Shown here piece after piece: positions 27,420 through 51,074 of a DNA stretch of 64,000 bases. The notes below the pieces were generated by a model. The model worked only from the letters and a program-made list of their open reading frames with translations, did no database searches and was not told the DNA's origin. A program made the translations under genes and the position numbers. The stretch is from an uncultured Ignavibacteriaceae bacterium. Lineage in GTDB: Bacteria; Bacteroidota; Ignavibacteria; UBA10030. Where the stretch lies: assembly GCA_964581115.1 (NCBI GenBank), contig CAZOMY010000001.1:325190-389189 (forward strand), in the 5' to 3' direction. Numbering within the stretch: the stretch's first letter is position 1; the number at the start of each line of letters is the position of its first letter.

Positions 27420-28099
27420 CCCCCGCCCCCTTGATCCCCCGCGGCCTTGTGGTCTCCTGCCAGGCCGAAGAGGGAAGTCCGTTCAACGCCCCGGATTTTA
27501 TCGTTGCTTTCGCCCGAGCGGCTGAGTTGGGCGGGGCTGTGGCCGTTCGACTGCGCGACGTCGAGAATGTCGCCGCGGTCCGATCGCGCATCTCCATCCC
27601 GATCATCGCCTTGACGAAGGGTTCGTTCGCCGACGGCAGCGTGCTCATCACTCCCGACGAGAGCGACGTGGCACGGCTTTTCGATGCCGGAGCCGACATG
27701 GTGGCCCTCGACGTGACGGACCGCACCGGCCCGGACGGTCGACACCGACTGGAGACGTTCCGGCGTGTGCGGGCGGATTTCCGCCGGCCCTTGATGGCAG
27801 ACATTGCGACGTACGAGGAAGGGATCAAGGCCGCCGAGGCAGGAGCCGACGTGGTGGGGACCACATTGTCGGGTTACACTCCGTCAACGGCGAAGGCGAG
27901 AAGGGATGTTCCCGACTTCGAGCTGATCGAACGGCTGGCCAAGGCGCTGCCGGGAAAGGTGGTGGCGGAGGGAAGGATCTGGACGCCCGAGCAAGCGGCG
28001 CTGGCGTTTCGTTTGGGTGCGGCGTCCGTCGTGGTGGGAACCGCCATCACGCGGCCCGTGGACATCGTGCGGCGCTTTGTTTCAGCGCTCAACCGCTGA
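27416..28099 (+). CDS. nanE: Putative N-acetylmannosamine-6-phosphate 2-epimerase (NanE family)
   Basis: VVSCQAEEGSPFNAP...VAVRL...IPIIALTK matches the NanE pattern (LIVSCQAL..EPL). The start was chosen at GTG 27416, which overlaps the GH38 TGA (GTGA). No in-frame ATG precedes the conserved N-terminus. Confidence 0.8.
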   Translation: MTPAPLIPRGLVVSCQAEEGSPFNAPDFIVAFARAAELGGAVAVRLRDVENVAAVRSRISIPIIALTKGSFADGSVLITPDESDVARLFDAGADMVALDVTDRTGPDGRHRLETFRRVRADFRRPLMADIATYEEGIKAAEAGADVVGTTLSGYTPSTAKARRDVPDFELIERLAKALPGKVVAEGRIWTPEQAALAFRLGAASVVVGTAITRPVDIVRRFVSALNR

Positions 28100-30142: not shown

Positions 30143-30159
30143 GCCATCATTTGAAAAAG

Positions 30160-30265
30160 CGTTTCACAGAGGTCCACAGAGGAACACAGAGATCCACAGA
30201 GAGCATCTCGTTTGAGTACTCGAGCAATGTTCGGTGGATCTCTGTGTGATCTCAGTGTAACGCTT
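30160..30265. repeat. Heptamer-built palindromic intergenic element A
   Basis: Four direct CACAGAG copies at 9-10 bp spacing (CACAGAGgtCCACAGAGgaaCACAGAGatCCACAGAGag) are followed by a 37-bp spacer. The perfect inverted copy GTGGATCTCTGTG (reverse complement of CACAGAGATCCAC) follows. Then come further CACTGAG-like units. Confidence 0.6.
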
Positions 30266-30272
30266 CATGGTG

Positions 30273-32459
30273 TCATTTTGCGGCGATCACGATGACTGCC
30301 GGTTCCGAGCCCGGATGGCCGTCCGACTCCGCCCGCACCAGCGTCAGGATCTGGTCCTTCGTCGCGACGCCGCACAGATCGACGATGCGATTCGAGATCA
30401 AAACGAAAACGTCGGGCGTGAGGCCTCCTGCGTCGCCGTACACCGTCGCCGACTCGACGAGCGCGCCTACGCGCGAACTCAATGACTGCACCGCGGCGGC
30501 CTCGACGATCGCGTTCGACAGCTTCAGCCGGATGACGCCGTCCGTTCCGACCACGCGCACCGGATGCCGCTCCATCGTCACCCAGCCGAACAACCTTGCC
30601 CGGCGGTAGACCCCCCGAAAGACGCGCAAGAATTCCGTCGAGCCGACGGCCTCGACGGGCTCAGCGCCCTGGCCCATCGACAGCCCGGCTATCCTTGCGA
30701 TCTCTTCGTCCGGAAGCCGGCTGCGGGCCAGATCGCGAGTTCGAAGTTCAGGCACACCTGTCGCAACGGCGATTAGGCGCTTCTGCTTGGTATCGACCTC
30801 GACACGGACGTCAATGGAATCGGCCGAGGCGCCCATTGCTGCGACCGACGCCGCCGCGTCAGCACGTATGCGCAGCAGATCCGCCTCGGTCGGTGAGATC
30901 ATGCTGCGTTCGACGGTGTCACGGATCATGCCGAGCGCCGCTCCGATGGCGGAGATCACTTCGGCGTGCGCCGTGATGGTGTACGGAAGTCCGGATTGTC
31001 GGGCCGATTCCGGAACGACGGCCTCCGCCCCTCCACCACCCCCCACCAACGACAGGAGCTCTCGGTCGAGTTCGTATTCGCGGATGAACTGCTCGACGAC
31101 ACGAGAGACCTTGCGAGCCGCCACCGCGAGGACCGTTGCGGCCCACGTCGACGGTTCCTGACGCACGAACGGACGCAGGATCTCGCCAAGCCGCTTCACC
31201 GACTCGGCATGTCCTCTGGCGTATCCGGTCGGCGTTCCGGTCAGGTTGAGGGCGTCGGTGGTCGTCACCGCCAGTGACGGCTTCCGTCCATCCTTCGGTA
31301 CCAGCACCGCGTAGTCGCCCGGATCACCCGGCCGGGGTTGAAGGCTCTGCGGTTCGACATCGGCCAGGTGCTGAGGATCGCTGAAACTCGGATAGTGCAG
31401 ACCCGCGATGTGGGCGCTGCGAGGGCCCACATCAACCACCGCGCCTTGCTTCCAACGAACCATCGACCCTCCGCCGATGCCGACGGTGCGAATGTCCAGC
31501 GTCTTGACAAACAGCCGGTGACCGCCAACCTCCGAGGTGCGGACCATCGGCCGTCCATTCTTGATAATAGAGATGTCGGTACTCGTGCCGCCGACCTCGA
31601 GGAACAGTCCGTCGGAGACCCGGGCGTACATGAGTGCCGCGGCCACGCCCGCTGCCGGTCCGGAGAGCATCGTGAGAATGGGACGCCGGCGCATCTCCTG
31701 AATATCCATGATGCCGCCGTCGCTGCGCATGATCATCAGGGGCGTGGTGATGCCCGCCCGGCGGACCGACTGTTCCGTCATGTTCGCCGCCTCGAGCATC
31801 TTCGGCAACATTGAGGCATTGATCACGGCCGTTCGCGTGCGTGCCCTCAATCCGTAAAGCTGAGAGATGTCCGATGCCGCGGTGACCAGAAGCCCTCTCG
31901 CCTGTAGCGCCTCAGCAGCCGCGTGCTCGCGTGACCGGTCATCCACACCGAACGCCTCGCTTACGACGAAGACCTCAGCACCCTCACCGCGCAATTCTTC
32001 CGCCGCCTGCACGATCGCTTCAGGCCGTACGCCGTCGGTGACATCGCAGTAACGGTGGAGCGTCTCGAGGAATTTGCCGGGGGCCAATTCGATGCGACCC
32101 ACCTTCGTCTGGCGACGTGCCACCCAGCCGTCGCCGCTTCGTCCAAGACCGATGATCCCGACGCGAGCCACGTCTCCTTCCAGAAGCGCGTTCGTCGCCT
32201 GGGTCGTGCTGTGGGCGATCAGCGACACGTCCGACGGCCGGATCTTCGACTTCCGGAGCAATTCCTGCATGACCTCCACCACACCCCGAGCCACCCCCTC
32301 TTTGGCGGCGTGCGTCGTTGGGACGACAGCCGTTCCAAGCAGCTTCAACGTCGATGCCTCGAGCGCGACGGCGTGCGTGAACGTGCCGCCGACGTCGATG
32401 CCGATCTTCACCTGGCGGCGAGTACGCCTTGCTTTCCTGTTGATGGGCCTGGAGGTCAT
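30273..32459 (-). CDS. Hydantoinase/oxoprolinase-family protein (Hydantoinase_A-like ATPase)
   Basis: ~729 aa. The N-terminal ASKHA motif is KIGIDVGGTFTHAV, and a second motif is LFLEVGGTSTDISII. The start was chosen at the verified ATG 32459 (MTSRPINRKARRTRRQVKIGIDVGGT). The ORF-track start at 32495 is a GTG lying inside repeat element B. Confidence 0.85.
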   Translation of the reverse strand: MTSRPINRKARRTRRQVKIGIDVGGTFTHAVALEASTLKLLGTAVVPTTHAAKEGVARGVVEVMQELLRKSKIRPSDVSLIAHSTTQATNALLEGDVARVGIIGLGRSGDGWVARRQTKVGRIELAPGKFLETLHRYCDVTDGVRPEAIVQAAEELRGEGAEVFVVSEAFGVDDRSREHAAAEALQARGLLVTAASDISQLYGLRARTRTAVINASMLPKMLEAANMTEQSVRRAGITTPLMIMRSDGGIMDIQEMRRRPILTMLSGPAAGVAAALMYARVSDGLFLEVGGTSTDISIIKNGRPMVRTSEVGGHRLFVKTLDIRTVGIGGGSMVRWKQGAVVDVGPRSAHIAGLHYPSFSDPQHLADVEPQSLQPRPGDPGDYAVLVPKDGRKPSLAVTTTDALNLTGTPTGYARGHAESVKRLGEILRPFVRQEPSTWAATVLAVAARKVSRVVEQFIREYELDRELLSLVGGGGGAEAVVPESARQSGLPYTITAHAEVISAIGAALGMIRDTVERSMISPTEADLLRIRADAAASVAAMGASADSIDVRVEVDTKQKRLIAVATGVPELRTRDLARSRLPDEEIARIAGLSMGQGAEPVEAVGSTEFLRVFRGVYRRARLFGWVTMERHPVRVVGTDGVIRLKLSNAIVEAAAVQSLSSRVGALVESATVYGDAGGLTPDVFVLISNRIVDLCGVATKDQILTLVRAESDGHPGSEPAVIVIAAK

Positions 32460-32469
32460 TGGAGGAGAA

Positions 32470-32560
32470 TTTGCCACAAAGAGCACAAAGGGCACAAAGA
32501 AGTGGGAATTAGGCGATAGTTCAACTTATGGCCTTTTGTGCTCTCTGTGTTCCTTGTGGC
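32470..32560. repeat. Heptamer-built palindromic intergenic element B (related to element A)
   Basis: CCACAAAGagCACAAAGggCACAAAGaagtgg is followed by a 28-bp spacer. Then comes GCCTTTTGTGCTCTCTGTGTTCCTTGTGGC, which is the reverse complement of GCCACAAGGaaCACAGAGagCACAAAAGGC. These are the same CACARAG heptamers at helical-turn spacing, arranged as an imperfect long palindrome. Confidence 0.6.
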
Positions 32561-32575
32561 CAAGCTTGTCTTGTG

Positions 32576-34063
32576 TCAGTAGAACAGCGCTCCGGCGATC
32601 GACAGCCCCAGCAATGCCGCCACCCAGGCATACGGCAGCGTGCGCCACATGATCTCGTTCACGTCGATGCGGACCTCGTTCGCCACCCAGACGTTCTGCG
32701 TATTGGTCGGGTCGCTGATACCCTGGATGAGGCCGAGCGACATGAGGATCCCCATCACCGCTCCGGCAGGAACTCCCGTCGCCAGCAGGATGCCACCGAC
32801 GCCATAGCCCAATCCCCAGACGTTCAGCGGACCGCGGTAAAGCGCCAAAGGTCCGAGGAGGGTGAAGAGCAGCACATAGCTCCAGCCGGACGACGGCACG
32901 ATCAACGAGAGCAACGGCTTCATGTCGGTCATGACCGGCCATTCAACGATCGCTCGGGCCGCCGCGTCGACATACCATGCACGACCGGGGCCTGTCGTGG
33001 TCGGCCCGAGGATGGCGCTCAACAGCATACCGATCCCGACCATCAACACCACAGCCGGTATGACGCTCGAGCTTCCTTCGATCATCGCGCGCGTCACCAT
33101 GTTGAGCGTGCCCCGCCGCAAGGTCACGATGATGCCGTAGACGAACGCCGCTATGAACGCCGCAATGAACGGAACGTCGAACATGAGGATCAAGATCAGC
33201 GGAACGAGCGGCGTAGCATACGCCCAAGCCGTGACCGATGAGACTGGACCGGAGGCACGGGTCCGGAATGCGCGTACGATCGACGACAATATCGCGTATC
33301 CCAACAGCGCGAGGATCGTCCATCGGAGCGGTGTCATGAGCCACGCTGTACCAATGTCGTTGAACGTCCATGCCAGCGCTGCCATGGCGACGCCGGTTCC
33401 GATCAGGCCCAGCACAGACGTACGGATCGTCCGAAATCGAACAGACCCACTCCGGAGCAACTCGAGGGTCAGAAATCCCACGGCAACGACCGCCGTTGTT
33501 CCGAAGAGGGCCATGGCATAAGACGACACCGCAGCGTCATCTAACCGCAGCACCGACCGATAGACCGCCCAGTTGTTCGCGTTCAGAAGTCCGCCAAGAC
33601 TGATGCCGACCAGCAGGACCCCGGCCGCCACGTGCTCACGTACGCCTAGCGACAGCAGGATCGGCAGGATCACCGCTCCGACCATGATCACTGCCCCGAG
33701 GCCGCCGATCGTAGTGAAGAGCAGCGTGACGATCGACAACATCACCAGCGCAACAAGCAACGGATTGTCGCCGGCAAACTCGGCCCCGCGCCGCACGATC
33801 TGTTCGGCCACGCCGGATCGCTGCAACAATTGGCTGACCATCCCGCCGAAGAAGGAGATGACCATCGGTTCGGTCAGTCGGAGGGCGCCGTCCGCGAGGA
33901 TGCCGGCGCTGACATCGGTCCACCCGAGGTGCCCGCTGGCGACCTGGACCAGCCCGATGCCAAAGGCCATCAGCGGAAGCGCCAGAACCGCCGGAAGCTT
34001 CCGGAGGAACATGAGCGTCGCGGCGGCGACAAAGATCAGCAAAATGAGGAAGGCGTTGAGCAT
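32576..34063 (-). CDS. Polytopic membrane permease (family unassigned; TctA/DctM/GntP-like size and topology)
   Basis: 495 aa, almost entirely hydrophobic, with ~12-14 TM segments and Gly-rich re-entrant-like stretches. The ATG at 34063 was verified. A family-level assignment was not possible by eye. Confidence 0.6.
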   Translation of the reverse strand: MLNAFLILLIFVAAATLMFLRKLPAVLALPLMAFGIGLVQVASGHLGWTDVSAGILADGALRLTEPMVISFFGGMVSQLLQRSGVAEQIVRRGAEFAGDNPLLVALVMLSIVTLLFTTIGGLGAVIMVGAVILPILLSLGVREHVAAGVLLVGISLGGLLNANNWAVYRSVLRLDDAAVSSYAMALFGTTAVVAVGFLTLELLRSGSVRFRTIRTSVLGLIGTGVAMAALAWTFNDIGTAWLMTPLRWTILALLGYAILSSIVRAFRTRASGPVSSVTAWAYATPLVPLILILMFDVPFIAAFIAAFVYGIIVTLRRGTLNMVTRAMIEGSSSVIPAVVLMVGIGMLLSAILGPTTTGPGRAWYVDAAARAIVEWPVMTDMKPLLSLIVPSSGWSYVLLFTLLGPLALYRGPLNVWGLGYGVGGILLATGVPAGAVMGILMSLGLIQGISDPTNTQNVWVANEVRIDVNEIMWRTLPYAWVAALLGLSIAGALFY

Positions 34064-34068
34064 GAACG

Positions 34069-35460
34069 TCAGAGGCGGGCGCCGCGCTTGATGAGTTCGG
34101 CGCGCAATCGAATGCCGTCAACCTTTCGGAAGGCCACGCCGTCCCTGATCGACATGGCCGAAGCCACCGCAGCCGCTTCGCCCATCGCCCGGCAATTCGA
34201 TTGCACCCGTATCGAGCTCTGCGCCTCGAACGAAGCCGAGAGACATCGTCCGGCCACTAGCAGTCCGTCTATGCCTACCGGAACAAGGCATCGATAGGGA
34301 ACCTCATGGTATTCTCCAGGAGGGAGCTTCGTCACGCCGTTGCGGGGGTCGTTCGGATCTCGATGGACGTCGAGCGGATAGTTGTTGCGAAGAACGCCGT
34401 CGGGGAACTTGGCGCCGGCGAGGACCTCTTCGGTCGTCAGGTAGTATTCCCCCCGGATCCGCCTCGATTCGCGCACCCCGACCATGGGCGCCGACAGGAC
34501 GAGATACGATCGTTCACATCCGGGGAGATACCGGCGGCAGAAGGAGACGTAGCGTTGAATGATCTCGCGACCTTTGATCTGGGCTTGAGTGAGATGATCG
34601 GGGTTCGTGCCGTCTACGTTCTCGCGGATCCGCGGGCAGTTAAAGGCCAGTTCGCCCGGCCGTCCGGCCATGCTGAACACCTGGAAGTAGTCCCCGTCGC
34701 GCTCAAGCAGGACACCCTCTTCCACCGCTTTGCGGAAGACCGGCTCGAGCGTCCAACCCTTTCCCCAGACCATCGCGGTGTGGATGAGCATCACATCGGT
34801 GCCTTCGGCATTCTCTATCACTTCATGCCGGCCGAGTGAGCGAAGGTATTGTGCGAACCGGGCCAGGTCGACGTTGCCAAGATGGAACCGCACTGAAAAC
34901 GGCTGGTTGCGTCCGGTCTCGGGGTCCCCCTGTTCAACCATGACCCCGGCCCGCGAAGCAACGTCCCCGTCGCCGGATGCATCGATCGTTCGTCGCGCCC
35001 TGATGAATCCCCTTCCGGCCTTGTTCAGTATGACAGAGCCGACGACAGATCCATCGTCCACGACCACGTCCTCAAACATTGTGTAGTACAGGATACGGGC
35101 CCCCATTTCGACGACCATTTGTTCGAGGGTGTACTTGAGCATCTCAGGGTTGAACCATCCTCGATTCCCGTCCTTCCAGACGCCCGACTCGCGCGCCGCG
35201 TTCATGCGCCGGTTGATCTCGAAGTCGATGCCGCCGTTGAGCGGCTCGCCATCGATCTGGTTGGGCATCATGGGGGTTACGAGCGCCCCCGTCTGTGTGC
35301 CGCCGAGGAAGCCCAGCTGTTCGACCACGAGTGTACGAAGGCCTTCGCGGCCGCCGGCGATCGCCGCGACCGCACCGGCCGTGCCGCCTCCGACGATCAG
35401 CAGGTCGACGTCCGCGACCGTCGGGATCGACTGCTCTTGGACTGAGCGCAACGAAAGCAT
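34069..35460 (-). CDS. FAD-dependent oxidoreductase (PF12831-like, GIDA-type fold)
   Basis: The N-terminal dinucleotide-binding motif is DLLIVGGGTAGAVAAIAGGREG, followed by a long FAD_oxidored-like body. The start was chosen at ATG 35460. Position 35463 is a TTG codon. Confidence 0.75.
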   Translation of the reverse strand: MLSLRSVQEQSIPTVADVDLLIVGGGTAGAVAAIAGGREGLRTLVVEQLGFLGGTQTGALVTPMMPNQIDGEPLNGGIDFEINRRMNAARESGVWKDGNRGWFNPEMLKYTLEQMVVEMGARILYYTMFEDVVVDDGSVVGSVILNKAGRGFIRARRTIDASGDGDVASRAGVMVEQGDPETGRNQPFSVRFHLGNVDLARFAQYLRSLGRHEVIENAEGTDVMLIHTAMVWGKGWTLEPVFRKAVEEGVLLERDGDYFQVFSMAGRPGELAFNCPRIRENVDGTNPDHLTQAQIKGREIIQRYVSFCRRYLPGCERSYLVLSAPMVGVRESRRIRGEYYLTTEEVLAGAKFPDGVLRNNYPLDVHRDPNDPRNGVTKLPPGEYHEVPYRCLVPVGIDGLLVAGRCLSASFEAQSSIRVQSNCRAMGEAAAVASAMSIRDGVAFRKVDGIRLRAELIKRGARL

Positions 35461-35540
35461 CAAACGATCCGTGGAGTGTGCGACGAGGTGAGACCATTGA
35501 ACGACCCGACAAGGTCGCCAAGGAACAGCCCAACATCAAC

Positions 35541-36260
35541 TCACAGCCGCGCGTGGAAGCCCATCCGGACGTCGAGCATCTGCAGGCCGCTGACGTTCTC
35601 CATGTCGAGCGCAAGCGCGGGCCAGAGCTCGCCGATGATCATCGTGTATCGCGCGCCAAGCGAGAACCAGAGGGGTTCAAACACCCGCACGCGCACGTCG
35701 GCGCCGAGGTCGAATCCGCCGCTCCATTCTTGCTGTCGGTTCTCCGGAACGTTCAGGATCGCCAGAGTCACGGGAGTTCCCAGCGAATCGGCAACGAGCG
35801 TCCCCCGAAAGGCGCCACGCAGGCTCGTCCAACGGTAGAAGCCGAATCCGAAGGCGCCATCGGCTTCGACGAACTCGCCGGCGAACAGTGGGAATGTCCC
35901 TGTCGCAAGCAGTCCGACCGCCTGTACCGAGACCTCAAGCCCGGTGAGCGGCAGGCCGAAGACCTGTTCGACCCCGGCGATCTCCTTCTTCCTCTTCAGC
36001 GCCAGGGCCTCGCGGTTCTCCTCCGTGAACGAGAGCCACTCCAGACGAGCCCCCCAACGAGGCTTGTCATCAGTGGCAGGCTGGACCAGAAGCGCACCCG
36101 ACCATCCGGGCTTGACACGATCGGATAAGCCACCAAGCGGAATGGCGATGCCGCCTTCGATGCCAACCACGGACGGCGACAAGATGATCTGGGCCCGTCC
36201 GTCAGGAGACGCCAGAGCGAGCCACAAGAGCGTGGCGAGGGACCTCAAGAAAGTCTTCAA
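35541..36260 (-). CDS. Small outer-membrane beta-barrel protein (hypothetical)
   Basis: It has a signal peptide (MKTFLRSLATLLWLALASPDGRAQ) and alternating amphipathic beta-strand patterning. The start is TTG and overlaps the upstream TGA (TTGA). It is the last gene of the co-directional operon. Confidence 0.5.
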   Translation of the reverse strand: MKTFLRSLATLLWLALASPDGRAQIILSPSVVGIEGGIAIPLGGLSDRVKPGWSGALLVQPATDDKPRWGARLEWLSFTEENREALALKRKKEIAGVEQVFGLPLTGLEVSVQAVGLLATGTFPLFAGEFVEADGAFGFGFYRWTSLRGAFRGTLVADSLGTPVTLAILNVPENRQQEWSGGFDLGADVRVRVFEPLWFSLGARYTMIIGELWPALALDMENVSGLQMLDVRMGFHARL

Positions 36261-36991
36261 TACAGAAACTCCAGTGCGATGCGGCCGGTGACAGAGCGGT
36301 CGAACGGCATCTCGTCAAAACCCATGGAGCCCTCGGTCGGAATGATCTGGACCAAGCGCCCCCCCGCTCGTATGCGCAACAACTCCGAGACCCTTACCGA
36401 TACGTCGAGCGATGCCATGGCGAAAAGAGGATTGCCCGCCTTTGGGTTCGAGAACTGTTCGAAGGTGTAGCCAAAGGTGTGGTCGACGGAAGCGAAGTAG
36501 CGCGTCCACGTCTCCTGCAGGTACAGTTTTCGCACAAAGAAAATCATGCCGCCTCCGATGGACGGCGTGACCGACACGCCCTCATCAGCGAACACCGGAT
36601 AGTGCAGTGCTACGGTGATCGGAAAGGCCTGCATACGCTGGATGGGCACGAGCGAGGCCGTGACGATCGAGGAATCCGGCCCGCGAACGATCGATTGTAC
36701 AAGACCGGCGTAGCGATCGTTCCAGAACGTCCAGTTCCATTTCTCCAGGGCACTGTCCTGATCGACCTCGTAGCGCTCATAGCCGAGACCGACCGAGATC
36801 GACAGATCACCAACCAGGCCGATGCGCACATCAACGCCGGCGCTCAGCCCGAAAGCATCGCGCACACGGATCCGCTCCGCGATCGAACGTGCATACCCGC
36901 CCGTGAACTGGACCGATTCCACCTGCGCGGCCGCGGTCATGACCATCAGGGCTGTCAGTGCCGCGCACGACGCCGAACGAAGGCTCTTCAT
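36257..36991 (-). CDS. Small outer-membrane beta-barrel protein (hypothetical)
   Basis: It has a signal peptide (MKSLRSASCAALTALMVMTAAAQ), beta-strand periodicity and a C-terminal aromatic residue (…ALEFLY). The verified ATG overlaps the upstream stop (ATGA). Confidence 0.55.
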   Translation of the reverse strand: MKSLRSASCAALTALMVMTAAAQVESVQFTGGYARSIAERIRVRDAFGLSAGVDVRIGLVGDLSISVGLGYERYEVDQDSALEKWNWTFWNDRYAGLVQSIVRGPDSSIVTASLVPIQRMQAFPITVALHYPVFADEGVSVTPSIGGGMIFFVRKLYLQETWTRYFASVDHTFGYTFEQFSNPKAGNPLFAMASLDVSVRVSELLRIRAGGRLVQIIPTEGSMGFDEMPFDRSVTGRIALEFLY

Positions 36992-37920
36992 AGCGACACC
37001 TGTACGGACATGCGCATCACATTCCCCAGCCGGCCGAACAGCACGTAGGCAAAGTCGAGCTCTACCGGCAGGCCGATGTTCGAACGAAGTCCCACGCCGA
37101 AGCTGTGGTCCTCTTCGTCATAGCCGAACTTATGTCCATAACGCAGCATGATCGATTCCTGCCACGCCACTTCGACCCCGCCGTGGATCCGCTCGTCGTT
37201 GTCGCTCGGGTGGAGCGCCTCCGCCATGATCGTCAGGCGCAACGGTTCGCCCGAACCGCCTATCGCCTCCATCGCAGCGCCCATCCGGAGCGTCGACGGC
37301 ATTCGGAATTCGTCGTTCACGAATTTCGCGTTCGTCCCGAAGTTCTGGATGACGGCTGCCAACCGCAGCGTCTGGAAACCGGTGTGGTAGATCATACCGC
37401 CGTCGAGCAGCAGATTGCTGGCGGCATACACGTCAACCCGCTCTTCGACGTATTTCAACGTTGCGCCGAACGCGAACTTGTCCGTCAGTCGTCTGCCGTA
37501 GGAGACGCCCAACGCCATCGACCGGGCACTGAAGGTTCCGGCCGCCGTAAACTCGCGTGTACCCACCTGACGGACCGTGCGCTCCATCGACCCGTGGTCC
37601 ATGACGTTGGCCGACACGCCGACCAGGCCGAGATCGAGCGGAATGGCAAACGCGACGCCGTAATGGGCGATGTCGGCGATCCAGGGGGCGTACGACAGTC
37701 CGACCGCCTGTGTCTCCATTGCGAATGCCGGACCAGCCGGATTCGAGAAGAGCCCTAAAGGGCCGCCATCGGCCCCGGCGAGGCCCGTTTCGCCCAACGC
37801 TGCATCGCGCGCCGACATCGGGACCTGAAGGAACGTGAATCCGGATGTGCCGGTGCGCTTGAAGGTCTGAGCGGACAGCGAAGCGCTGAGCGCAACGAGG
37901 AGAACGAATGCCCGCTTCAT
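36988..37920 (-). CDS. Putative T9SS-associated outer-membrane beta-barrel protein (PorP/SprF-like or PorV/PorQ-like)
   Basis: 310 aa with a signal peptide (MKRAFVLLVALSASLSAQ). The N-terminal region SARDAALGETGLAGADGGPLGLFSNPAGPAF resembles the conserved ..ARs.alGg...A.aDd.sa...NPAgLA stretch of the PorV/PorQ/PorP families. It is translationally coupled (ATGA) directly downstream of a CTD-bearing cargo gene. This is the typical context of PorP/SprF partners. Confidence 0.5.
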   Translation of the reverse strand: MKRAFVLLVALSASLSAQTFKRTGTSGFTFLQVPMSARDAALGETGLAGADGGPLGLFSNPAGPAFAMETQAVGLSYAPWIADIAHYGVAFAIPLDLGLVGVSANVMDHGSMERTVRQVGTREFTAAGTFSARSMALGVSYGRRLTDKFAFGATLKYVEERVDVYAASNLLLDGGMIYHTGFQTLRLAAVIQNFGTNAKFVNDEFRMPSTLRMGAAMEAIGGSGEPLRLTIMAEALHPSDNDERIHGGVEVAWQESIMLRYGHKFGYDEEDHSFGVGLRSNIGLPVELDFAYVLFGRLGNVMRMSVQVSL

Positions 37921-40007
37921 CGGATGATCGCCAGTTTGCCGATCTTCGTGCCCAACGGAGATTCGACGTGATAGATGTAGATGCCGCTCTCAACGAACTG
38001 GCCGAAATCGGTCAGCTGGTCCCATGCAACAATGCCACCGAAGCCATCGGGCACTGTCAGCGTCTTGACAAGGTCTCCTCGGACGGTGTAGATACGGATC
38101 GCGGCAGGATTGGGGATGTTGACGAACTGGATCTCGTCACCCTGCGTCGGCTGGGAGAAGCCTTCGCCGATCACGTACGGGTTGGGGACGACGAGAATGC
38201 CGTCGAGCGATGCCGACGCCGGCAATGTCATTTTGAATGGCGCCGTGGTCCGGTTCGCGAAGATCGACGATTCCAGCGGAGGCACGCGATTGCTGCCGGT
38301 CTCCGGGAAGATGGCCGACGGATTCACCGGCCAGGAGGCTTTGCCCGTGTCGTAGGCCGTCACGGCATAGTAATAGCCGGTCCCGACGTCTCCCGTCGAA
38401 TCGATAAAGGCATAGCGTCCCGTCGTCCCCGTGTAGAATTGCGGATCGCCGCGGGCGACCGTTCCGATCGGTTCCCAGGGACCGATCGGGAGGTACGAAG
38501 AGCGATAGATTCGGTAGCCGGCGAGGTCGAACGTGCCGTCATCGGGGTCGGCCAGTGATTCGGTCTCCGTCCCCCACGAGATCGACGTGGCAGCAAACCC
38601 GGGCCGGTCGCGAAGATACTCGAGCGTGAATGAAGGCGCGGCCGGTGGATCCGGATGGTTCAGCCCGGGCCGGCTGGCGAGCCGCGATTGATCGTACGTG
38701 AACTGCGCTTTGCGGGCCGTCGTCTGGAAGATCGTCGAACCGGCTCCGATGCTCGCCTTCGAGGCTGACGGGTTGACGACGACGCTGTAGTCGACGCCGT
38801 CCACGACCTCGGCTAGAGCGATGACGACCGAGTCACCCGGCGCGAGATTCCACGGGCCGATCGACATCAGCGACCAGACGCGTGTCCTCCGCATTTGCAG
38901 GGTGTCGGAGGACGAAGCGATCGGATTCGTGGCGTTCGCCGGATCACGGAGGACGTCATACCTTGACTCGAACGTCGCCTTGCCAGTAAACGGGCCTCCC
39001 TGATCGATCGACGGACTGCCCCCCGACCACGCGATCTTGTTGACGCGCGAGGTCTGTCCGAACTTGTTCGGACTGGCATAAAGCAATTTGACACCCACAT
39101 GCCCGGGAGCAAGCCATTCGCCGGTCGGGTCGCCGTTCGCGCTGATGGGCCCCTGGGTGCGCGACCGCATGTACTCTTCATCCTCTGGCGTATCAAGATA
39201 ATCGCCCGAGCGGGCCCACATCATGTTGTAGGTCGGGTGGTTCGGGTTTGTGCTCAGGGGACCGAAATGGTACGTGCCACGGGCCCCGGAGGGCAGCGTC
39301 GGAAAGAGGACGGTCCATGCCCGGGAATTGACATGCAAGCCATAGACGGCCAGGGCGTAAAAGTCAAAGAGCGTGTCCTGCACGGCACGCGCCGTGTCGA
39401 GCAGGCGTATCTCAGCAGAGATGTTCTTGAAGCTGTATTCGTGAATGATGTAGTTCTCGTCGCGTTTTGACCCGCTCCATTGATGCGACAGCCGGCTCAC
39501 GCGCAACGGCAGCTGGCGCTCCCGGTCATCGACACGGTTGTAGTTGAGGTTGTACTCCCACGAGGTCTCGATGACCTCCTCCCCCGTCCGTCCCGACGTT
39601 TTCAGGTGGTGGTTCGCTCCCCCCGGATACAGGTGACGGTGCTTCGTCACGATGTACTTTGCACTCGCTTCGTTCGCGATGCTGCTGGCATAGATCGCCC
39701 AGTCCTCGACCGCGAAGACCGAGTCGGCGTCCTTCTTGGCACCGACGTAGAAACCGCCGGTCACGAGATGCGACGGCGGACCACCGATGTCGCGAGCGAT
39801 CCAGGTGTCGTCAAACCCGGGCCAGTCCAAGCCGATGCCCCGGCGTCCCCAGTTGCTGTAGACCGGGCCAACCTTGCCGGCCTGGAGACTGTGCCAAAGC
39901 ATCCCCCGGCGAAAGCTCAGAATGGGAGACTCCACCTGCGCGACGGCATCGGACATCGCAGACGCGGCCAGCAGACCCAAGATCAGATGACGGAGGTTCG
40001 TTTGCAT
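37917..40007 (-). CDS. Secreted protein with a variant T9SS C-terminal sorting domain (type-B-like or divergent type-A), encoded in the SusD position after a TonB-dependent transporter
   Basis: 696 aa. The SPI-type signal peptide is LILGLLAASAMSDAVAQ, with no lipobox cysteine. The C-terminal ~90 aa are VVPNPYV...IRIYTVRGDLVKTL...WDQLTDFGQFVESGIYIYHVE...GTKIGKLAIIR. This matches the T9SS CTD architecture (PN.F/Y, IY..RG.LV, WDG...G..V.SG.Y.Y, G.K.G.L.IIR). The ATG overlaps the TBDT stop. Confidence 0.65.
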   Translation of the reverse strand: MQTNLRHLILGLLAASAMSDAVAQVESPILSFRRGMLWHSLQAGKVGPVYSNWGRRGIGLDWPGFDDTWIARDIGGPPSHLVTGGFYVGAKKDADSVFAVEDWAIYASSIANEASAKYIVTKHRHLYPGGANHHLKTSGRTGEEVIETSWEYNLNYNRVDDRERQLPLRVSRLSHQWSGSKRDENYIIHEYSFKNISAEIRLLDTARAVQDTLFDFYALAVYGLHVNSRAWTVLFPTLPSGARGTYHFGPLSTNPNHPTYNMMWARSGDYLDTPEDEEYMRSRTQGPISANGDPTGEWLAPGHVGVKLLYASPNKFGQTSRVNKIAWSGGSPSIDQGGPFTGKATFESRYDVLRDPANATNPIASSSDTLQMRRTRVWSLMSIGPWNLAPGDSVVIALAEVVDGVDYSVVVNPSASKASIGAGSTIFQTTARKAQFTYDQSRLASRPGLNHPDPPAAPSFTLEYLRDRPGFAATSISWGTETESLADPDDGTFDLAGYRIYRSSYLPIGPWEPIGTVARGDPQFYTGTTGRYAFIDSTGDVGTGYYYAVTAYDTGKASWPVNPSAIFPETGSNRVPPLESSIFANRTTAPFKMTLPASASLDGILVVPNPYVIGEGFSQPTQGDEIQFVNIPNPAAIRIYTVRGDLVKTLTVPDGFGGIVAWDQLTDFGQFVESGIYIYHVESPLGTKIGKLAIIR

Positions 40008-43000
40008 CAGAAGGTGAACCCGACGGAAAGGAAGATCTGGCGTGGGATGTTCCGGTACGCCTTGTACGGCGCCGCGATGTAGCTGAGCCTGAGCGGATCA
40101 TCACCCGGGTCGGCGACCGTGAATCCGCGTTCGACCCAGTTATTCCGGTCCACTTGTCCGTCCATCGGCGTCAGCCATTGGTTGTTGAACAGGTTCATGA
40201 TGCGGGCCCCCAAGACGATGTCGCGGTCCAACAGGCGCAACGTCTTGACGATATTGACGTCGACGCTCGTTTCAAGTGGATACCGCCGGTTGTACAGCAC
40301 GTCCTGCACGTCGAAATCGGTCACGTAGGTGAACGGAAGTCCGGACTGTGCGGCGTACGTGAGGCTGACGGACGTGTTCGCGAACGGCCGGACGCCCGCG
40401 ATCTCGGCTCCTTCGTCGTGACCCAGCCGGTACTGCACGAGCGCCCGGAGCACATGTGTCCGGTCCGACGGCGACAGGAATTCACCCGTGAAGTTGCGCG
40501 ACGCGAAAGCGGTCACGCCCTCCGGGAACTGCTCCTGCGGACCGTAATTCCCTTCCGTCGTCTGCGAGAGGTTGTAGCTGATGCGATAGTGCCATCGCGA
40601 CGGCGAGATGCGCTCGAACGTGATCTCGAGACCGCGCGTCGAACCGAATGCATTGTTCGCGAAGGTCGTATACAGATAGAGCGGAGTATTGTCGGGCAGA
40701 ACGCCCCGCGGCCGGTCGGCGCTCCCCGTCAGGGCCGCCACGCGCAGCAGTCCCACCTGGCTGACGCGGTCGTTGTAATACAAGGCAACATCAAATCGAT
40801 GGTCCTCATTGACGACCTGCTGAACACCGAACTCGTAATTGATCGTCTTCTTGGGCTCGAGGTTCGGATTGCCCCGGCCGGTCCAACCGCTTTGTGTCCG
40901 CTGCGAGAGGCCGTGTGCGAAGATGGGCATCGATGCAAAGTGGCCGTATTGTACCCGGAACGCCGTGTTCTCGCCGATCGGGAACGAAAGACCCAATCGC
41001 GGCATAAGGACCGTACGGGTCGCCGACGGCTCGGTCGACGGGTCGCCGACGGTACTCGGACGAACGTTGTTGCTGAGCGTCCCCTGGTAGAACGGGTTGA
41101 AGAGGTCGACGGCGACGTCCTCCTGGAAATTGTATGCCTCCGCACGCAATCCGATGTTCGCCACGAGCCCTTCGTACTCCATCTTATCCTGGACATACGC
41201 CGACAGGAGCCACGGATAGGCCCTGTAGTATTCGGCAAATCCGGACCGGAAGAGATAGGAATTCGCCTGGAAGGAGGAGTTGACGCCGTTGTTGACCATG
41301 TCCCAGTAGTAGCCCCGGATGCCGACCTTAAAGAGGTTGGTGGACGTGGCCTGATCGGTATAGTCGACCGCGATCGAGGCGTGTTCCGTCCGGTTGTACT
41401 GGTAGTAGTTCGTACTGAAGTTGAAGGGCTCACGGAAATACGACCCGTCCCACCAGACGCCTTGCCGCAGCACCGTCCCCGAGGCGTCGTTCAGGCTGTC
41501 GAGGCGATCGCGAGCCGACTCATAACCGGCCAGGTATTCGTACGGCAGCTCATACGACTCCACTTGGTGTGAGGCCGTGAGTTCGATGAACGAATGCGTA
41601 TCGATCGTGTAGACCCAATTGAAACTCTGGGTAAAGGTCTCTTCCGTCCGGACGGGGTCGGTCTTGATGTAGTACTTCGTCGAGATGCCGGGAGGACTGA
41701 ATGCGAGGCCCGACCAACGGATGTCATCGGAACCCGACCAGATACCGCCGCGATACCGTTGGTACATGGCGAGCAGCTTGAATTTGTGCGCTCGTACCGG
41801 CGTGTAGATGACGTTCGTCAGATAGTTCTGGAACACGAGGTTCTGTTCGGCAGTCGGTAGTCGCGTCGGCGCGTTGCGGTACTCTCCCGAGAAGAAGAAG
41901 CGCAGGAGCTCCGGGTCGCGCGTCAAGGGTCCGCCGAATCCGATCAGATAGCGCGTATACATCCCTTTCCGGTAATCGTAGACGCCGAGCGCATTGTCGT
42001 CGGCGGGCGTATGGTTCTTGAGCCAGATGTCATATGCCCAAGCCGCTTCTTTGAGGACCACGTCGCTCCATGCCGCCGAGTCGGCTCCCGTCGCGGTTCC
42101 GGTCTGGTACATCTTGTTGTACAACGCCGACGCACGCGTGTTGAGGCCCAGCTGGTCGGCGATCAATCGAAGGTCGCGGATCCAGTAGTCGAAATCGCCC
42201 CATCGCTGCCACTCATAGCTGTTCCGGTCGTAGACATACGGGCCGAAGTGATACTGCCCCGGAGGCCGCATCTCAACGCGGAATTCGCCGTTGAAGCGCG
42301 GGCCACCCTCCTTGGAAACCACCTTCACGACGCCCGCCTGCGCGTTGCCGTACTCGGCCGAGAAGCCGCCCGAGATGAGCTGCACCTGCTGGACCGCCAG
42401 CGGGTTGACGTCAAATTTCCACGAGTTGTCCGCCTTGCTGGTTCCGAACGAGCCCGGGGCCGTCGTCGATGCATTGATCTGTTGGACGCCGTTGATCTGG
42501 TAGTTGACCTCGTAGGCCCCCGAGCCGCGCACGCTGTAGTTGCCTTGCGCGTCCTTCTGGAAGCCGGCGACGAGATCGAGCGCACCTCGAATGCCCTCCA
42601 TCGGCGCCGACTTCAGCTGGGTCTCGCTGATGCTCTGGGCGGTCGAGGTCTGATCGCGGATGATCTTCGGCCGCTCAGCCGTCACCACCACTTCCTTCGC
42701 CTCGATGGTGGCGTCTTCCATCTGCAGGTCGATGTTCGTCGTCCGGTCGATGTCGATCTCTACGCTCCGTACAGAGACGCGATTGTATCCAAGCATGGAG
42801 CCGATGACGGTGTACGTTCCCGGAGGAATGTTCAGGATCGTGTATCGACCCTCGAAATCCGTGGCCACGCCGAGCGTCGTTCCTTCGAGGAAGACGTTCG
42901 CTCCGATCAAAGGTTCTCGGGTCCGGGCATCGACGACGCTGCCCGACAGCTTTCCACGCTGGCCCTGGGCTTGCAGCGGCCCGAGGCACACGGCCAGCAC

Positions 43001-43048
43001 GGAAAGGGCGAGAAGAAGGCGGTGTCGCACGGTCAACTCACTTGACAA
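40007..43048 (-). CDS. TonB-dependent transporter, SusC/RagA-like (CarboxypepD_reg N-domain, plug, 22-strand barrel)
   Basis: 1013 aa. The signal peptide is followed by KLSGSVVDARTREPLIGANVFLEGTTLGVATDFEGRYTILNIPPGTYTV, a carboxypeptidase-regulatory-like domain. The plug region and a long barrel follow. The C-terminus is the typical ...SVGFTF. The start is TTG at 43048. Confidence 0.88.
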   Translation of the reverse strand: MSSELTVRHRLLLALSVLAVCLGPLQAQGQRGKLSGSVVDARTREPLIGANVFLEGTTLGVATDFEGRYTILNIPPGTYTVIGSMLGYNRVSVRSVEIDIDRTTNIDLQMEDATIEAKEVVVTAERPKIIRDQTSTAQSISETQLKSAPMEGIRGALDLVAGFQKDAQGNYSVRGSGAYEVNYQINGVQQINASTTAPGSFGTSKADNSWKFDVNPLAVQQVQLISGGFSAEYGNAQAGVVKVVSKEGGPRFNGEFRVEMRPPGQYHFGPYVYDRNSYEWQRWGDFDYWIRDLRLIADQLGLNTRASALYNKMYQTGTATGADSAAWSDVVLKEAAWAYDIWLKNHTPADDNALGVYDYRKGMYTRYLIGFGGPLTRDPELLRFFFSGEYRNAPTRLPTAEQNLVFQNYLTNVIYTPVRAHKFKLLAMYQRYRGGIWSGSDDIRWSGLAFSPPGISTKYYIKTDPVRTEETFTQSFNWVYTIDTHSFIELTASHQVESYELPYEYLAGYESARDRLDSLNDASGTVLRQGVWWDGSYFREPFNFSTNYYQYNRTEHASIAVDYTDQATSTNLFKVGIRGYYWDMVNNGVNSSFQANSYLFRSGFAEYYRAYPWLLSAYVQDKMEYEGLVANIGLRAEAYNFQEDVAVDLFNPFYQGTLSNNVRPSTVGDPSTEPSATRTVLMPRLGLSFPIGENTAFRVQYGHFASMPIFAHGLSQRTQSGWTGRGNPNLEPKKTINYEFGVQQVVNEDHRFDVALYYNDRVSQVGLLRVAALTGSADRPRGVLPDNTPLYLYTTFANNAFGSTRGLEITFERISPSRWHYRISYNLSQTTEGNYGPQEQFPEGVTAFASRNFTGEFLSPSDRTHVLRALVQYRLGHDEGAEIAGVRPFANTSVSLTYAAQSGLPFTYVTDFDVQDVLYNRRYPLETSVDVNIVKTLRLLDRDIVLGARIMNLFNNQWLTPMDGQVDRNNWVERGFTVADPGDDPLRLSYIAAPYKAYRNIPRQIFLSVGFTF

Positions 43049-44456
43049 GCATCATCGTACGCGACAAGACCCCTTCGCGGGTCGTAAGCGTGTACGTATA
43101 GGCGCCGCTGGCCAGGCCGCCGCCGTCAAAGAATCGATGGTGGATCCCGGCCGACAGATCGCCATCCACCAGCGCTGCCACGCGCTGTCCGATGACATTG
43201 AAGACCTCCAGTCGGACCGGACCGGCCGACCGCAACGTGAAGGCGATCATGGTCGTCGGGTTGAACGGATTCGGATAGTTCTGGTACAGCGCGAAGTCCA
43301 TCGGAGACTGGGAGGCCGATTCGACGGTGGTCGCGGTCGTGTACTTGAACTGGAAGACCTTCTGCGCCACCGCATCCGAGACATAGGCGGTCAGTCCGTC
43401 GGGCGTCAATCCGACATCGGTGGGGGCGATCATTGGAGCACCGTTCGGGTCTGCGCTGAAGCCATCCTGATTATTCACCGACGGCAGGTCGAACGTTTCC
43501 ATGGCAAGAATGCCGCCTACGTCGAAGGCCTTCACCCATCGCTTCGTCGAATCGATGCCGGCGACCCAGAGGAGGCCGTCCTTGTCCATCGTGATCCCGT
43601 AGCTCACAGCGCTCGAAAAGGTCAGGAGCCCGGTGGCATCGGAGATCCGCGTCCCGCGGTAGGTACCCATCGCCAGTTGCTTGCCGCCTTGCCAGGCCGT
43701 GATACCCCCGGTCGACGTCGAGGCCGCGGAATTGCGGGACGTATAGAAGACGGTGTTCGTATCGGCGTAGTCGCCGTTGGGACGGAGCGCGATGTCTCGA
43801 ATGACGTCCACGCCCCCCGTTTGTTGGCCGCCGGGGTCGAGTTGCGATTCCGACGACCATGCGCCCTTGATGGGAGCTGTGATCGTATTCGTGAAGTTGT
43901 ACGACCTCACCCGCGGACCTGGCACTCCGGCCCCTGCCGATACACCCGCAAATGCGATCGTGTCGCGCGTCAGTGTCACCCCATGGTGAAACGTACCATG
44001 ACCCGACTGGGACGGCAAATAGTAGCCGAATTTCTGCACCAGCATCGTGTCTCCGGTGGGATAGTAGTACATGACACCCACCGTTGCCGGCTTGGTCCGC
44101 TGATACGGTATCGAGGCATTGATGATGATATCTGAACCGATCGAACCGATCCCACGCAACTGGCCGATGTTGCCGGTCAGCGTGTCGGCGTCGCCGTTGA
44201 GGGTGAAGTCGACCAACTTCTTCATCTCAGAGTCATTCGAATCTGCGTACCAGATGGCGTTTCGAGCAGTGGCATTGGTCGCCGTGGTCGAGATCACGTA
44301 CACTCGGCCGGCCGATGTGACGGTCAACAGATATGGTTGCACGTAGGAGGAATCCGTCGCCGGGAACGGGATCGCCTTGATGAAACGCCACTGCGGCTGA
44401 GCTGACGCTGTCAGCACGCTCAACGCCGTGATCATGACTGTCGCAAGGATCTTCAT
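43038..44456 (-). CDS. Secreted hypothetical protein (probable beta-propeller-like fold) with a type-A T9SS C-terminal domain
   Basis: The start was chosen at the verified ATG 44456 (MKILATVMITALSVLTASAQ, a signal peptide). The C-terminus is YQNYPNPFNPTTMIAF...GAYTYTLTTREGVLSRTMMLVK, a canonical type-A CTD. The 3' end overlaps the TBDT start by 11 nt. Confidence 0.7.
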   Translation of the reverse strand: MKILATVMITALSVLTASAQPQWRFIKAIPFPATDSSYVQPYLLTVTSAGRVYVISTTATNATARNAIWYADSNDSEMKKLVDFTLNGDADTLTGNIGQLRGIGSIGSDIIINASIPYQRTKPATVGVMYYYPTGDTMLVQKFGYYLPSQSGHGTFHHGVTLTRDTIAFAGVSAGAGVPGPRVRSYNFTNTITAPIKGAWSSESQLDPGGQQTGGVDVIRDIALRPNGDYADTNTVFYTSRNSAASTSTGGITAWQGGKQLAMGTYRGTRISDATGLLTFSSAVSYGITMDKDGLLWVAGIDSTKRWVKAFDVGGILAMETFDLPSVNNQDGFSADPNGAPMIAPTDVGLTPDGLTAYVSDAVAQKVFQFKYTTATTVESASQSPMDFALYQNYPNPFNPTTMIAFTLRSAGPVRLEVFNVIGQRVAALVDGDLSAGIHHRFFDGGGLASGAYTYTLTTREGVLSRTMMLVK

Positions 44457-44557
44457 GGCACATCTCCTCTTGGATGTGTCACCACCCGACAACCCCGGTG
44501 GCCGACTGATGGTATGGATGGAGAATGACGACTCGTTGCCAGGACAATGTCTGAGGG

Positions 44558-47757: not shown

Positions 47758-48225
47758 GGGTAGATCTGCAGGAGAAGTATTGGTTTGTCAACCTGACGAA
47801 CAAACCCAATTTGCCATCCTAACTTCAGTCTGTCAAGTTAATTCCTCTGAGTTCAATTCCCAATCATGAGACAGGTTGCACCTCATGACTGACCGACGCA
47901 GTCCGCCCTATACGATGCGTCCACACAAGTCCCTGCCATATTCCTGACCCAGAGCCACCTCGACGAAATGCCGCTGGATCGAGCCCATCGGCCGAGGAAC
48001 ATCTCGGCCAGGACGACCCCCGCACCACCCTTGCGCGTGGATGAACTCAGCAAGCATTTCTCCACTCCATCGCACTGTTCTCCCCCAGGTCCCCTCCAAG
48101 GATCATTCTCAGATCTGTTCCTCCTTCCCTCCACCTACGGTGCGCAGTGTGAACTTCATTTCTACCAACCGGGGTTCTCCACAGACACTCCTTCTCTTGT
48201 TGCTCTTCCGATCTCCCTCGATGCT
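47758..48225. promoter_or_regulatory. Long (468 bp), lower-GC, CT-rich intergenic region upstream of the ROK-regulator operon
   Basis: There is no convincing ORF with sensible codon bias. The composition differs noticeably from the coding flanks (long CT-rich tracts, TTGTCAACCTGACGAACAA). It presumably carries the promoter/operator of the ROK-GHL10-TonB operon. An ncRNA cannot be excluded. Confidence 0.4.
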
Positions 48226-51051: not shown

Positions 51052-51074
51052 ATCCCCGTTGGAGGAGCGACAGC

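Follow-up and report, generated by a model that had tools for sequence, protein, structure and literature searches.

The 64,000-nt stretch of DNA analyzed here (the window; contig CAZOMY010000001.1 of an uncultured Ignavibacteriaceae bacterium; all coordinates are positions within it) encodes a 696-aa secreted protein (37917..40007, minus strand) that ends in a variant of the C-terminal domains (CTDs) of type IX secretion system (T9SS) cargo. Its gene is linked to those of a 1013-aa TonB-dependent transporter (40007..43048, minus strand) and a 310-aa outer-membrane barrel of the PorV/PorQ family (36988..37920, minus strand). The transporter, the variant-CTD protein and the PorV-like barrel are invariably linked, both in the Ignavibacteria orthologues and in the remote paralogues that were sampled. 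We propose, at odds slightly better than even (a probability of about 0.55), that the T9SS delivers the 696-aa protein to the cell surface, where it would bind glycans in the role of SusD while its own PorQ-like barrel holds it permanently beside the transporter. In this arrangement the barrel would be the dedicated docking partner of the variant CTD. The proposal revises an original prediction that had taken the tail for a type B CTD and the barrel for a PorP/SprF partner.

Results

The variant C-terminal domain

The variant CTD occupies aa 604-696 of the 696-aa protein (37920..38198, minus strand). The ORF (open reading frame) and its translation contained the features that the original prediction had quoted, namely VVPNPY, IYTVRGDLV and the terminal IIR. 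The tail sequence ends ...ILVVPNPYVIGEGFSQPTQGDEIQFVNIPNPAAIRIYTVRGDLVKTLTVPDGFGGIVAWDQLTDFGQFVESGIYIYHVESPLGTKIGKLAIIR, and its motifs are VVPNPY ... IRIYTVRGDLV ... SGIYIYHVES ... KIGKLAIIR. In the AlphaFold2 model, seven strands located between residues 605 and 694, at the extreme C-terminus, form an Ig-like sandwich. An insertion of 9-13 residues follows the PNP[YF] motif of the variant tail in the profile-profile alignment with type A domains and is modeled with low confidence.

A motif scan of the window ORFs of at least 150 codons located four other CTDs, at 43038-44675, 44558-46534, 59735-63157 and in the partial ORF 63319-63999, and did not find the variant tail elsewhere. All four have the form ..YPNPFN[PS]...[MV]VL[VM]K, as expected from the earlier statement that the remaining CTDs of the window are canonical type A. 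The protein encoded at 43038 scored 26.9 bits against TIGR04183 (cutoff 23) and is a canonical type A CTD protein.

The only NCBIfam matches of the full 696-aa protein were the PorZ C-terminus (E 1.9e-5), the PorU C-terminus and TIGR04183 (15.4 bits). When the tail was searched alone at E<=10, it scored 28.5 bits against PorZ (E 5e-7), 20.2 bits against TIGR04183, just under the cutoff of 23, and 15 bits against PorU; the corresponding scores of the family consensus tail were 35.9, 23.2 and 18.6 bits. The PorZ model (NF052228) aligned at its positions 666-742 of 757 only, with 23-28 bits versus a cutoff of 260. PF18962 reached 11.6 bits on the variant tail, under its cutoff of 27. The type B models, TIGR04131 and PF13585, gave no match at E<=10 with either the window tail or the family consensus, and with PorZ and PorU as the best matches the type B assignment was not sustained. 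Profile-profile alignment (hhalign) of the variant tail with the type A CTDs of the window extended over the whole domain, with 96.7% probability and an E-value of 3.7e-10. The profile of 23 orthologous tails was also compared with the PDB, where PorZ ranked first (5M11, residues 668-758, ending KLIRFAVIR) and PorU second (6ZA2). The window tail has the seven-stranded C-terminal Ig-like sandwich of type A CTDs, and its scores lie below the TIGR04183 and PF18962 cutoffs. The matches to PorZ, PorU and TIGR04183, together with the hhalign result, indicate that the tail belongs to the type A-like Ig fold as a divergent branch. By profile comparison, the variant tail is a distinct class that is homologous to type A and has the CTDs of PorZ and PorU as its closest matches. 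A generic FlgD_ig domain was considered as an identity for the tail and rejected, with FlgD_ig scores of 13-22 bits that were never the best match.

The tail is also the best-conserved region of the protein. Over 51 orthologues its mean pairwise identity was 70.6%, compared to 54-55% for the other domains (54% for the N-terminal one). A neighboring type A CTD protein was used as control, and in this case the values were 53.8% for the CTD and 50.1% for the body (36 sequences, consisting of the window protein and 35 orthologues). This excess of tail conservation, unlike what was observed in the type A control, fits a lasting specific contact and not a disposable signal. The CTDs of PorU and PorZ are known to stay uncleaved, and PorZ is bound by PorQ, which may pick it up at the translocon (PMC10947112; PMC10202324; PMC11285876). 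The conservation of the tail and its likeness to the PorZ and PorU domains suggest that the CTD would be retained rather than removed by the PorU sortase.

The 310-aa barrel

The junction between the 696-aa and 310-aa genes reads ATC ATC CGA TGA AGC. The TGA stop and the ATG start share ATGA, which is the overlap with a signal-peptide barrel gene that had been described for this pair. A signal peptide is present in the 310-aa protein, whose AlphaFold2 model (pLDDT 89) consists of 14 long strands and an N-terminal hatch. It scored 181.2 bits against the PorV/PorQ family model NF033709 (cutoff 90) and 36.6 bits against Pfam PorV, above the cutoff of 27. The equivalog models all scored under their cutoffs: 120.9 bits for PorQ (NF033711, cutoff 220), 75.7 for PorV (NF033710, cutoff 250) and 30.5 for PorV2 (cutoff 325). 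A profile built from 50 barrel homologues matched Flavobacterium PorV in the PDB (6H3I_F, E 2.6e-35). When the barrel model was searched with Foldseek, the best match was PorV 8GL6_F (E 4.7e-16, TM 0.75) and the next one was 6H3I_F, both with TM 0.74-0.75 and both belonging to translocon complexes. FadL, TodX and TbuX were the following matches, and there was a weak match to the BamADG structure 9hiv_F (E 7e-6). No match to PF11751 or to the PorP family was found for the 310-aa protein (NCBIfam at E<=1, Pfam at E<=10); the PorP/SprF partner that had been anticipated gave way to a protein with a clear PorV/PorQ family score and PorV as its top fold. The orthologues of the barrel are labeled 'PorV/PorQ family protein' by NCBI. 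The family match combined with scores below the equivalog cutoffs indicates a PorV/PorQ-family paralogue that is neither canonical PorV nor canonical PorQ. As judged by its family models, the 310-aa protein is a PorV/PorQ-family barrel. The PorV-like family was not matched among the other larger window ORFs scanned.

The passenger domains of the 696-aa protein

The 696-aa protein carries a signal peptidase I signal peptide (AVA↓QVE) and no lipobox. Its AlphaFold2 model (pLDDT 86, pTM 0.86) shows four parts, a beta-supersandwich, a fibronectin type III (FN3) domain, a linker and the seven-stranded C-terminal sandwich. The N-terminal beta-supersandwich comprises about aa 24-445 (38673..39938, minus strand) and has a galactose-mutarotase-like fold similar to that of glycoside-hydrolase N-domains. 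The catalytic (alpha/alpha)6 partner domain is absent beside it. Going by the model, the supersandwich is a carbohydrate-binding-type fold. The FN3-like domain, at about aa 455-555 (38343..38645, minus strand), was recognized from the strand pattern of the model and from Foldseek matches to FN3 tandems, and it includes the conserved motifs DLAGYRIYRS and YYYAVTAYD. The FN3 domain and tail of remote proteins share 29-32% identity with those of the 696-aa protein (E 5e-26 and 3e-21). No Pfam family matched the 696-aa protein, and a whole-protein profile of its family matched nothing among the PDB sequences.

The transporter and the coupled cassette

The 1013-aa protein, encoded by the first gene of the cassette, matched the Pfam families CarbopepD_reg_2 (82 bits, cutoff 32.2), Plug (38.3, cutoff 23.9) and OMP_b-brl_3 (39.4, cutoff 27). 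TIGR04056 (SusC/RagA) matched the N-terminal part only, with 68.5 bits versus a cutoff of 368. Between the N-terminal domain and the plug there is a stretch, KEVVVTAERP, that resembles the TonB-box consensus when the translation is inspected by eye. The domains matched in the 1013-aa protein are those expected of a TonB-dependent transporter, with an N-terminus (CarboxypepD_reg) in the style of SusC. No SusD-family match was found among the neighboring genes scanned.

Two further genes follow that of the barrel, one for a 244-aa signal-peptide protein (36257..36991, minus strand), probably a small outer-membrane beta-barrel, and one for a 239-aa signal-peptide protein (35541..36260, minus strand), which is the last of the cassette. 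The 244-aa protein had only a weak OMP_b-brl match (14.2 bits) in Pfam and none in NCBIfam or among the PDB sequences, and the 239-aa protein had no match in Pfam, NCBIfam or the PDB. No similarity between the two was detectable, and both were absent from the remote paralogous trios whose neighborhoods were inspected. The stop of the transporter gene and the start of the 696-aa gene meet in TGATG, the 310-aa and 244-aa genes overlap by ATGA, and the 244-aa and 239-aa genes overlap by 4 nt. The 696-aa and 310-aa genes are in the middle of a translationally coupled cassette with the order transporter, 696, 310, 244, 239. The original prediction had considered the pair and missed the TonB-dependent transporter cassette around it.

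The predicted signal-peptidase I sites of six secreted proteins encoded at 35541-44459 (minus strand) all leave an N-terminal Gln (LQA↓QGQ, AVA↓QVE, LSA↓QTF, AAA↓QVE, GRA↓QII and ASA↓QPQ). An N-terminal Gln after signal-peptidase I cleavage has been described as the 'Bacteroidetes Q-rule' (PMC5837995), and it occurs here in an Ignavibacteria-type genome.

Orthologues and synteny

In Ignavibacteria-type metagenome-assembled genomes (MAGs), over 180 proteins are homologous to the 696-aa protein along their full length, with 50-94% identity. Most are annotated as 'hypothetical' and have no Pfam domain, and those with a named source belong to Ignavibacteria or Melioribacteraceae MAGs. A one-genome-per-species collection was scanned with the 696-aa family, 197 stretches encoding relatives were recovered and 80 loci were kept. 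These correspond to 80 different assemblies, nearly all labeled Ignavibacteria-type. The nearest relative, at 90%, is in the MAG 'Bacteroidetes bacterium Prado081'.

To assess synteny, the window proteins were compared with all 83 retrieved loci by tblastn. The transporter and the barrel each had a homologue at 82 of the 83, the exceptions being contig ends. The 244-aa protein had a homologue at 77 loci, the 239-aa protein at 74, the GHL10 protein described below at 76 and the upstream type A CTD protein at 72. The gene order transporter, 696, 310, 244, 239 was constant in the loci whose rows were inspected.

Remote relatives and the recurring trio

The family profile was searched against 1.84 billion cluster representatives (clusters at 50% identity) and matched 7,784 clusters at E<=1e-3, of which 2,566 reached E<=1e-10. 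In the majority the match is confined to the FN3-linker-tail module, and it always lies at the C-terminus of the matching protein. Seven remote neighborhoods were sampled, two of them reached through distant PorV-like matches and five through the tail. In all seven, genes for a CarboxypepD_reg/Plug transporter and for a PorV/UPF0164-like barrel adjoin that of the tail protein. The barrel-family profile confirmed the remote barrels with 97-343 bits (97-276 bits for the five that lie outside that profile). The remote trios adjoin other glycoside hydrolases, LacI or ROK regulators, or an exbBD-tonB operon. For example, locus L086 has the order LacI, transporter, 1025-aa protein, PorV-like barrel, NPCBM, GH98, and locus L085 has exbB, exbD, exbD, tonB, transporter, 712-aa protein, PorV-like barrel, type A CTD protein. 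The remote trios have further recurrent neighbors, among them a gene for a GWxTD-domain protein after the PorV-like gene (L084, 9056-10684) and a gene for a 239-aa OMP_b-brl protein before the transporter (L089, 945-1664).

When 18 diverse tails of this superfamily were scanned, the PorZ model matched all of them, TIGR04183 matched 17, PorU 16 and TIGR04131 one (E 0.033). PF13585 matched 15 and PF18962 matched 13 of the 18, and the scores seen individually, which were those of 10 tails, were all under cutoff. For PF13585 these were 12-21 bits (cutoff 27), no better than the type A scores; its best E-value among the 18 was 4.3e-7, for a member whose bit score is not among the 10. These mixed matches indicate that the tail class falls between the existing models. 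A search with the alignment of the 18 tails returned mostly short contig-end fragments and was informative about taxon names but not about architectures. The named relatives come from Ignavibacteria, Bacteroidota, Zixibacteria, Latescibacteria, KSB1 and WOR-3, and they are annotated as hypothetical or as 'T9SS type A sorting / C-terminal target domain' proteins.

Genomic surroundings of the cassette

The cassette belongs to a same-strand run of about 20 kb. Upstream are a ROK-family regulator (46531-47757, minus strand; Pfam HTH_24 and ROK), a GHL10 hydrolase-like secreted protein with a type A CTD (44558-46534, minus strand; Pfam GHL10 146.8 bits, Golvesin_C and Por_Secre_tail) and the type A CTD protein that was used as the canonical comparator (43038..44459, minus strand; likely 473 aa), whose gene overlaps the start of the transporter gene. 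The ORF listed for this last protein (43038-44675, 545 aa) begins at a GTG within the upstream gene. Its probable real start is M73, at position 44459 (MKILATVMITALSVLTASAQ), which gives 473 aa; the orthologues at loci L001 and L003 have 472 and 479 aa. Downstream of the cassette, Pfam identified an FAD_oxidored protein (PF12831; 34069-35463, minus strand), a hydantoinase/oxoprolinase-like protein (30273-32495, minus strand) and a DUF4855-ROK fusion (28082-30142, minus strand), and a 495-aa membrane protein without a Pfam family is encoded at 32576-34063 (minus strand). The order of these downstream catabolic and uptake genes (28082..35463) is identical in loci L003-L006. A second GHL10 protein, fused to an NAGPA phosphodiester glycosidase, is encoded nearby, and Pfam placed sugar-kinase-like and transporter genes in the further context. 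As far as domain content indicates, the cassette is inside a glycan-catabolism (glycan-utilization) operon. The catabolic gene set around it (28082-35463 and 44558-50637, minus strand; two GHL10 proteins, the PF12831 protein, the 495-aa membrane protein, the hydantoinase-like protein, the DUF4855-ROK fusion and the ROK regulator) is conserved and functionally uncharacterized.

Elsewhere in the window there are two more genes for CarboxypepD_reg-type TonB-dependent receptors (53398-56331, plus strand, and 56373-58631, minus strand), located beside one for an alpha-galactosidase (Melibiase_2, 51048-53348). A 1140-aa Sortilin/BNR-repeat protein with a type A CTD (59735-63157, minus strand) is almost identical over its last ~90 residues to the partial ORF 63319-63999, their shared ending being ...GADG[VA]RFVRTNKMVLMK. 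Such near identity suggests that the CTD region has recently been duplicated or has undergone gene conversion.

Discussion

There are two known ways in which T9SS cargo stays on the cell, sortase attachment to lipopolysaccharide (LPS) for type A CTDs and binding by a PorP/SprF-like barrel for type B CTDs. To our knowledge, PorZ-PorQ is the single odd case outside both. The module described here would follow that case. The 696-aa protein would be exported by the Sec pathway and would then pass the outer membrane through the type IX translocon. Its variant CTD, instead of being shuttled by the general PorV to the PorU sortase and cleaved, would be taken and permanently held by the PorQ-like barrel of the operon, as PorQ holds PorZ. 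The supersandwich domain would thereby be tethered at the cell surface next to the transporter, where it could capture the oligosaccharides freed by the co-encoded secreted GHL10 and NAGPA enzymes and feed them to the transporter. The module would functionally replace the SusD lipoprotein of classical Bacteroidota polysaccharide utilization loci (PULs) in lineages or loci that do not have a SusD gene, and the 244-aa and 239-aa outer-membrane proteins would be accessory subunits. Cognate PorV-like barrels have been hypothesized to shield CTDs from cleavage (PMC10202324), and a T9SS may be present in Ignavibacteriota (PMC11285876). Since canonical type A CTD cargo is encoded by genes of this operon, a T9SS is also to be expected.

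Several observations weigh against this proposal. The likeness of the tail to PorZ and PorU is weak in absolute terms (28 bits versus 260) and is confined to the tail. The PDB matches had non-significant E-values (0.28 for PorZ and 0.71 for PorU) and were used as corroboration of the NCBIfam result only. Relatives of the tail occur in phyla without an established T9SS (Zixibacteria, KSB1, WOR-3 and Latescibacteria). In addition, the supersandwich fold assigned from the model is found also in enzymes, such as epimerases, and in lyase accessory domains, and the designation as a binding protein stays putative. It is conceivable, if unlikely, that the architecture is as proposed but that the tethered 696-aa protein acts as an enzyme at the cell surface, its supersandwich having for instance an epimerase- or lyase-like activity, and not as a passive glycan-binding, SusD-like subunit.

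The other alternatives concern the tail and the barrel. Had the pair been a type B CTD with a PorP/SprF-like partner, as in SprB-SprF or PG1035-PorP, this would agree with a tail that is not canonical type A, with a gene coupled to that of a small barrel, with the PF13585 (CHU_C) matches in 15 of the 18 superfamily tails (sub-threshold in the 10 seen individually) and with the faint precomputed PF11751 match that a few barrel orthologues carry alongside PF19572. However, neither TIGR04131 nor PF13585 matched the window tail or the consensus, TIGR04131 reached one of the 18 tails at E 0.033, and the CHU_C scores of 12-21 bits compare with a cutoff of 27 and with a 96.7% hhalign probability for type A. 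The barrel has no PorP/SprF match, scores 181 bits as PorV/PorQ and has PorV as its best fold. At the level of family membership this interpretation is refuted, and we give it next to no weight. A different alternative is that the pair represents the PorZ and PorQ of this lineage, that is, general components of the type IX attachment complex and not a cargo-specific uptake module. In its favor, the tail scores best on the PorZ CTD and the barrel on the PorQ equivalog, the family is highly conserved, and no genome occurs twice among the 80 listed loci. Nonetheless, only the last ~90 residues align to PorZ, the remainder being supersandwich and FN3 instead of two beta-propellers, and the scores are far under the equivalog cutoffs (23-28 versus 260 for PorZ, 121 versus 220 for PorQ). 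In every case the two genes are embedded by translational coupling downstream of a TonB-dependent transporter gene, within catabolic operons that have ROK or LacI regulators, and the divergent paralogous trios adjoin different glycoside hydrolases, which fits substrate-specific modules. An orthologous PorZ/PorQ pair was rejected for these proteins, with no full-length two-propeller PorZ match and a PorQ score below the equivalog cutoff, and we regard this alternative as quite improbable.

It could also be argued that the type IX system has no part in this module. The barrel would then be a FadL-type channel or structural partner, the Ig-like CTD an interaction domain, and the 696-aa protein periplasmic or exported in some other way. 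PorV itself has the FadL fold, and FadL, TodX and TbuX were the fold matches that followed PorV. The FadL homologue BamG binds a surface protein in the Bacteroides beta-barrel assembly machinery (BAM) with no role in the T9SS (PMC12578637). The occurrence of tail relatives in phyla of uncertain T9SS status and the sub-threshold FlgD_ig matches point in the same direction. On the other hand, the PorV family model was passed twofold and PorV from CTD-bound translocon complexes was clearly the best fold. Moreover, the domain is located at the extreme C-terminus, its seven strands follow the topology of CTDs, it ends with a K-[FL]-A-[IV]-[IV]-[RK] motif resembling that of PorZ, and there is canonical type A CTD cargo in the same operon. 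We consider a module without a type IX role unlikely, and a T9SS-delivered protein held by its own PorQ-like barrel remains our preferred explanation.

The comparison with known systems helps to place such a module. Like PorZ-PorQ, it combines a tail that is neither clearly type A nor clearly type B with a dedicated PorV-family barrel; the tail is nearest to the PorZ CTD, with ...FAVIR as the end of PorZ and ...LAIIR here, and the barrel scores best on the PorQ equivalog. Unlike in PorZ-PorQ, the passenger consists of a supersandwich and FN3 in place of two beta-propellers, the genes lie side by side with translational coupling in a TonB-dependent transporter cassette of a catabolic operon, the equivalog scores are under cutoff, and a role in the delivery of anionic LPS is not expected. 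SprB-SprF and PG1035-PorP share with it a cargo with a non-canonical CTD encoded beside its own anchoring barrel, which spares the CTD from cleavage, but the tail and barrel described here belong to the type A/PorV side. The original prediction had also proposed a cargo-specific module. A distinct tail class that is strictly linked to its own barrel makes a cargo-specific docking module plausible, and this part of the prediction stood; the SprB-SprF pattern that went with it was replaced by that of PorZ-PorQ. The SusC-SusD (RagA-RagB) systems and the 'utilisomes' resemble this locus in having a SusC-style transporter followed by the gene of a surface partner, together with secreted glycan-degrading enzymes and a dedicated regulator. 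They differ in that here there is no SusD-like lipoprotein, the partner has a T9SS-type tail, no lipobox and its own PorV-like anchor barrel, and the transporter scores under the cutoff of the SusC/RagA subfamily. BamG-BamH of the Bacteroides BAM offers another parallel, a barrel of FadL/PorV fold whose extracellular loops hold a surface protein near another large barrel, although it is part of the BAM machine, BamH is a lipoprotein without a CTD, and the 310-aa model matched the BamADG structure 9hiv_F only weakly in the fold search.

Taken singly, the T9SS-type CTD, the PorV/PorQ-family barrel and the TonB-dependent transporter all belong to known kinds. PorQ-PorZ is a precedent for the use of a cognate PorV-like barrel, a principle that has also been hypothesized more generally (PMC10202324). 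The arrangement did not turn up in literature searches on the transporter/PorV-like/CTD trio, on PorV paralogues, on UPF0164 with TonB or on PULs of Ignavibacteria or Melioribacter, which is weak evidence of novelty since the literature coverage was incomplete. As far as the searchable literature goes, what seems new is a very large and distinct tail class with an obligatory pairing to a private PorV paralogue, and the integration of tail and barrel with a TonB-dependent transporter in PUL-like loci of several phyla of the Fibrobacterota-Chlorobiota-Bacteroidota (FCB) superphylum. More tentatively, and at somewhat less than even odds, the trio may be a widespread undescribed nutrient-capture machine of this superphylum, in which the type IX system would install a substrate-binding subunit and a private PorQ-like barrel would hold it. 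Such a machine would do without SusD, as an alternative to the architecture of classical PULs, and its 'docking' tails, recognized by cognate PorV paralogues, would make up a third functional class of CTDs.

The locus suggests that the PorZ-PorQ principle is general and numerically large, and that it has been recruited for uptake beside TonB-dependent transporters. If this is true, the signature VVPNP[YF] ... CTIRIYT.[AR]GDLV ... SG[IV]Y.[YF]H[IV]ES ... GKFA[IV][IV][RK] would mark proteins that the present Pfam and NCBIfam models overlook or label wrongly, and PUL prediction in Ignavibacteria and candidate phyla would improve. The tails and barrels would constitute a natural set of co-evolving pairs for studying the recognition of CTDs by PorV-like proteins, and the module would account for the assembly of glycan-capture complexes on the cell surface in FCB lineages that have no SusD.

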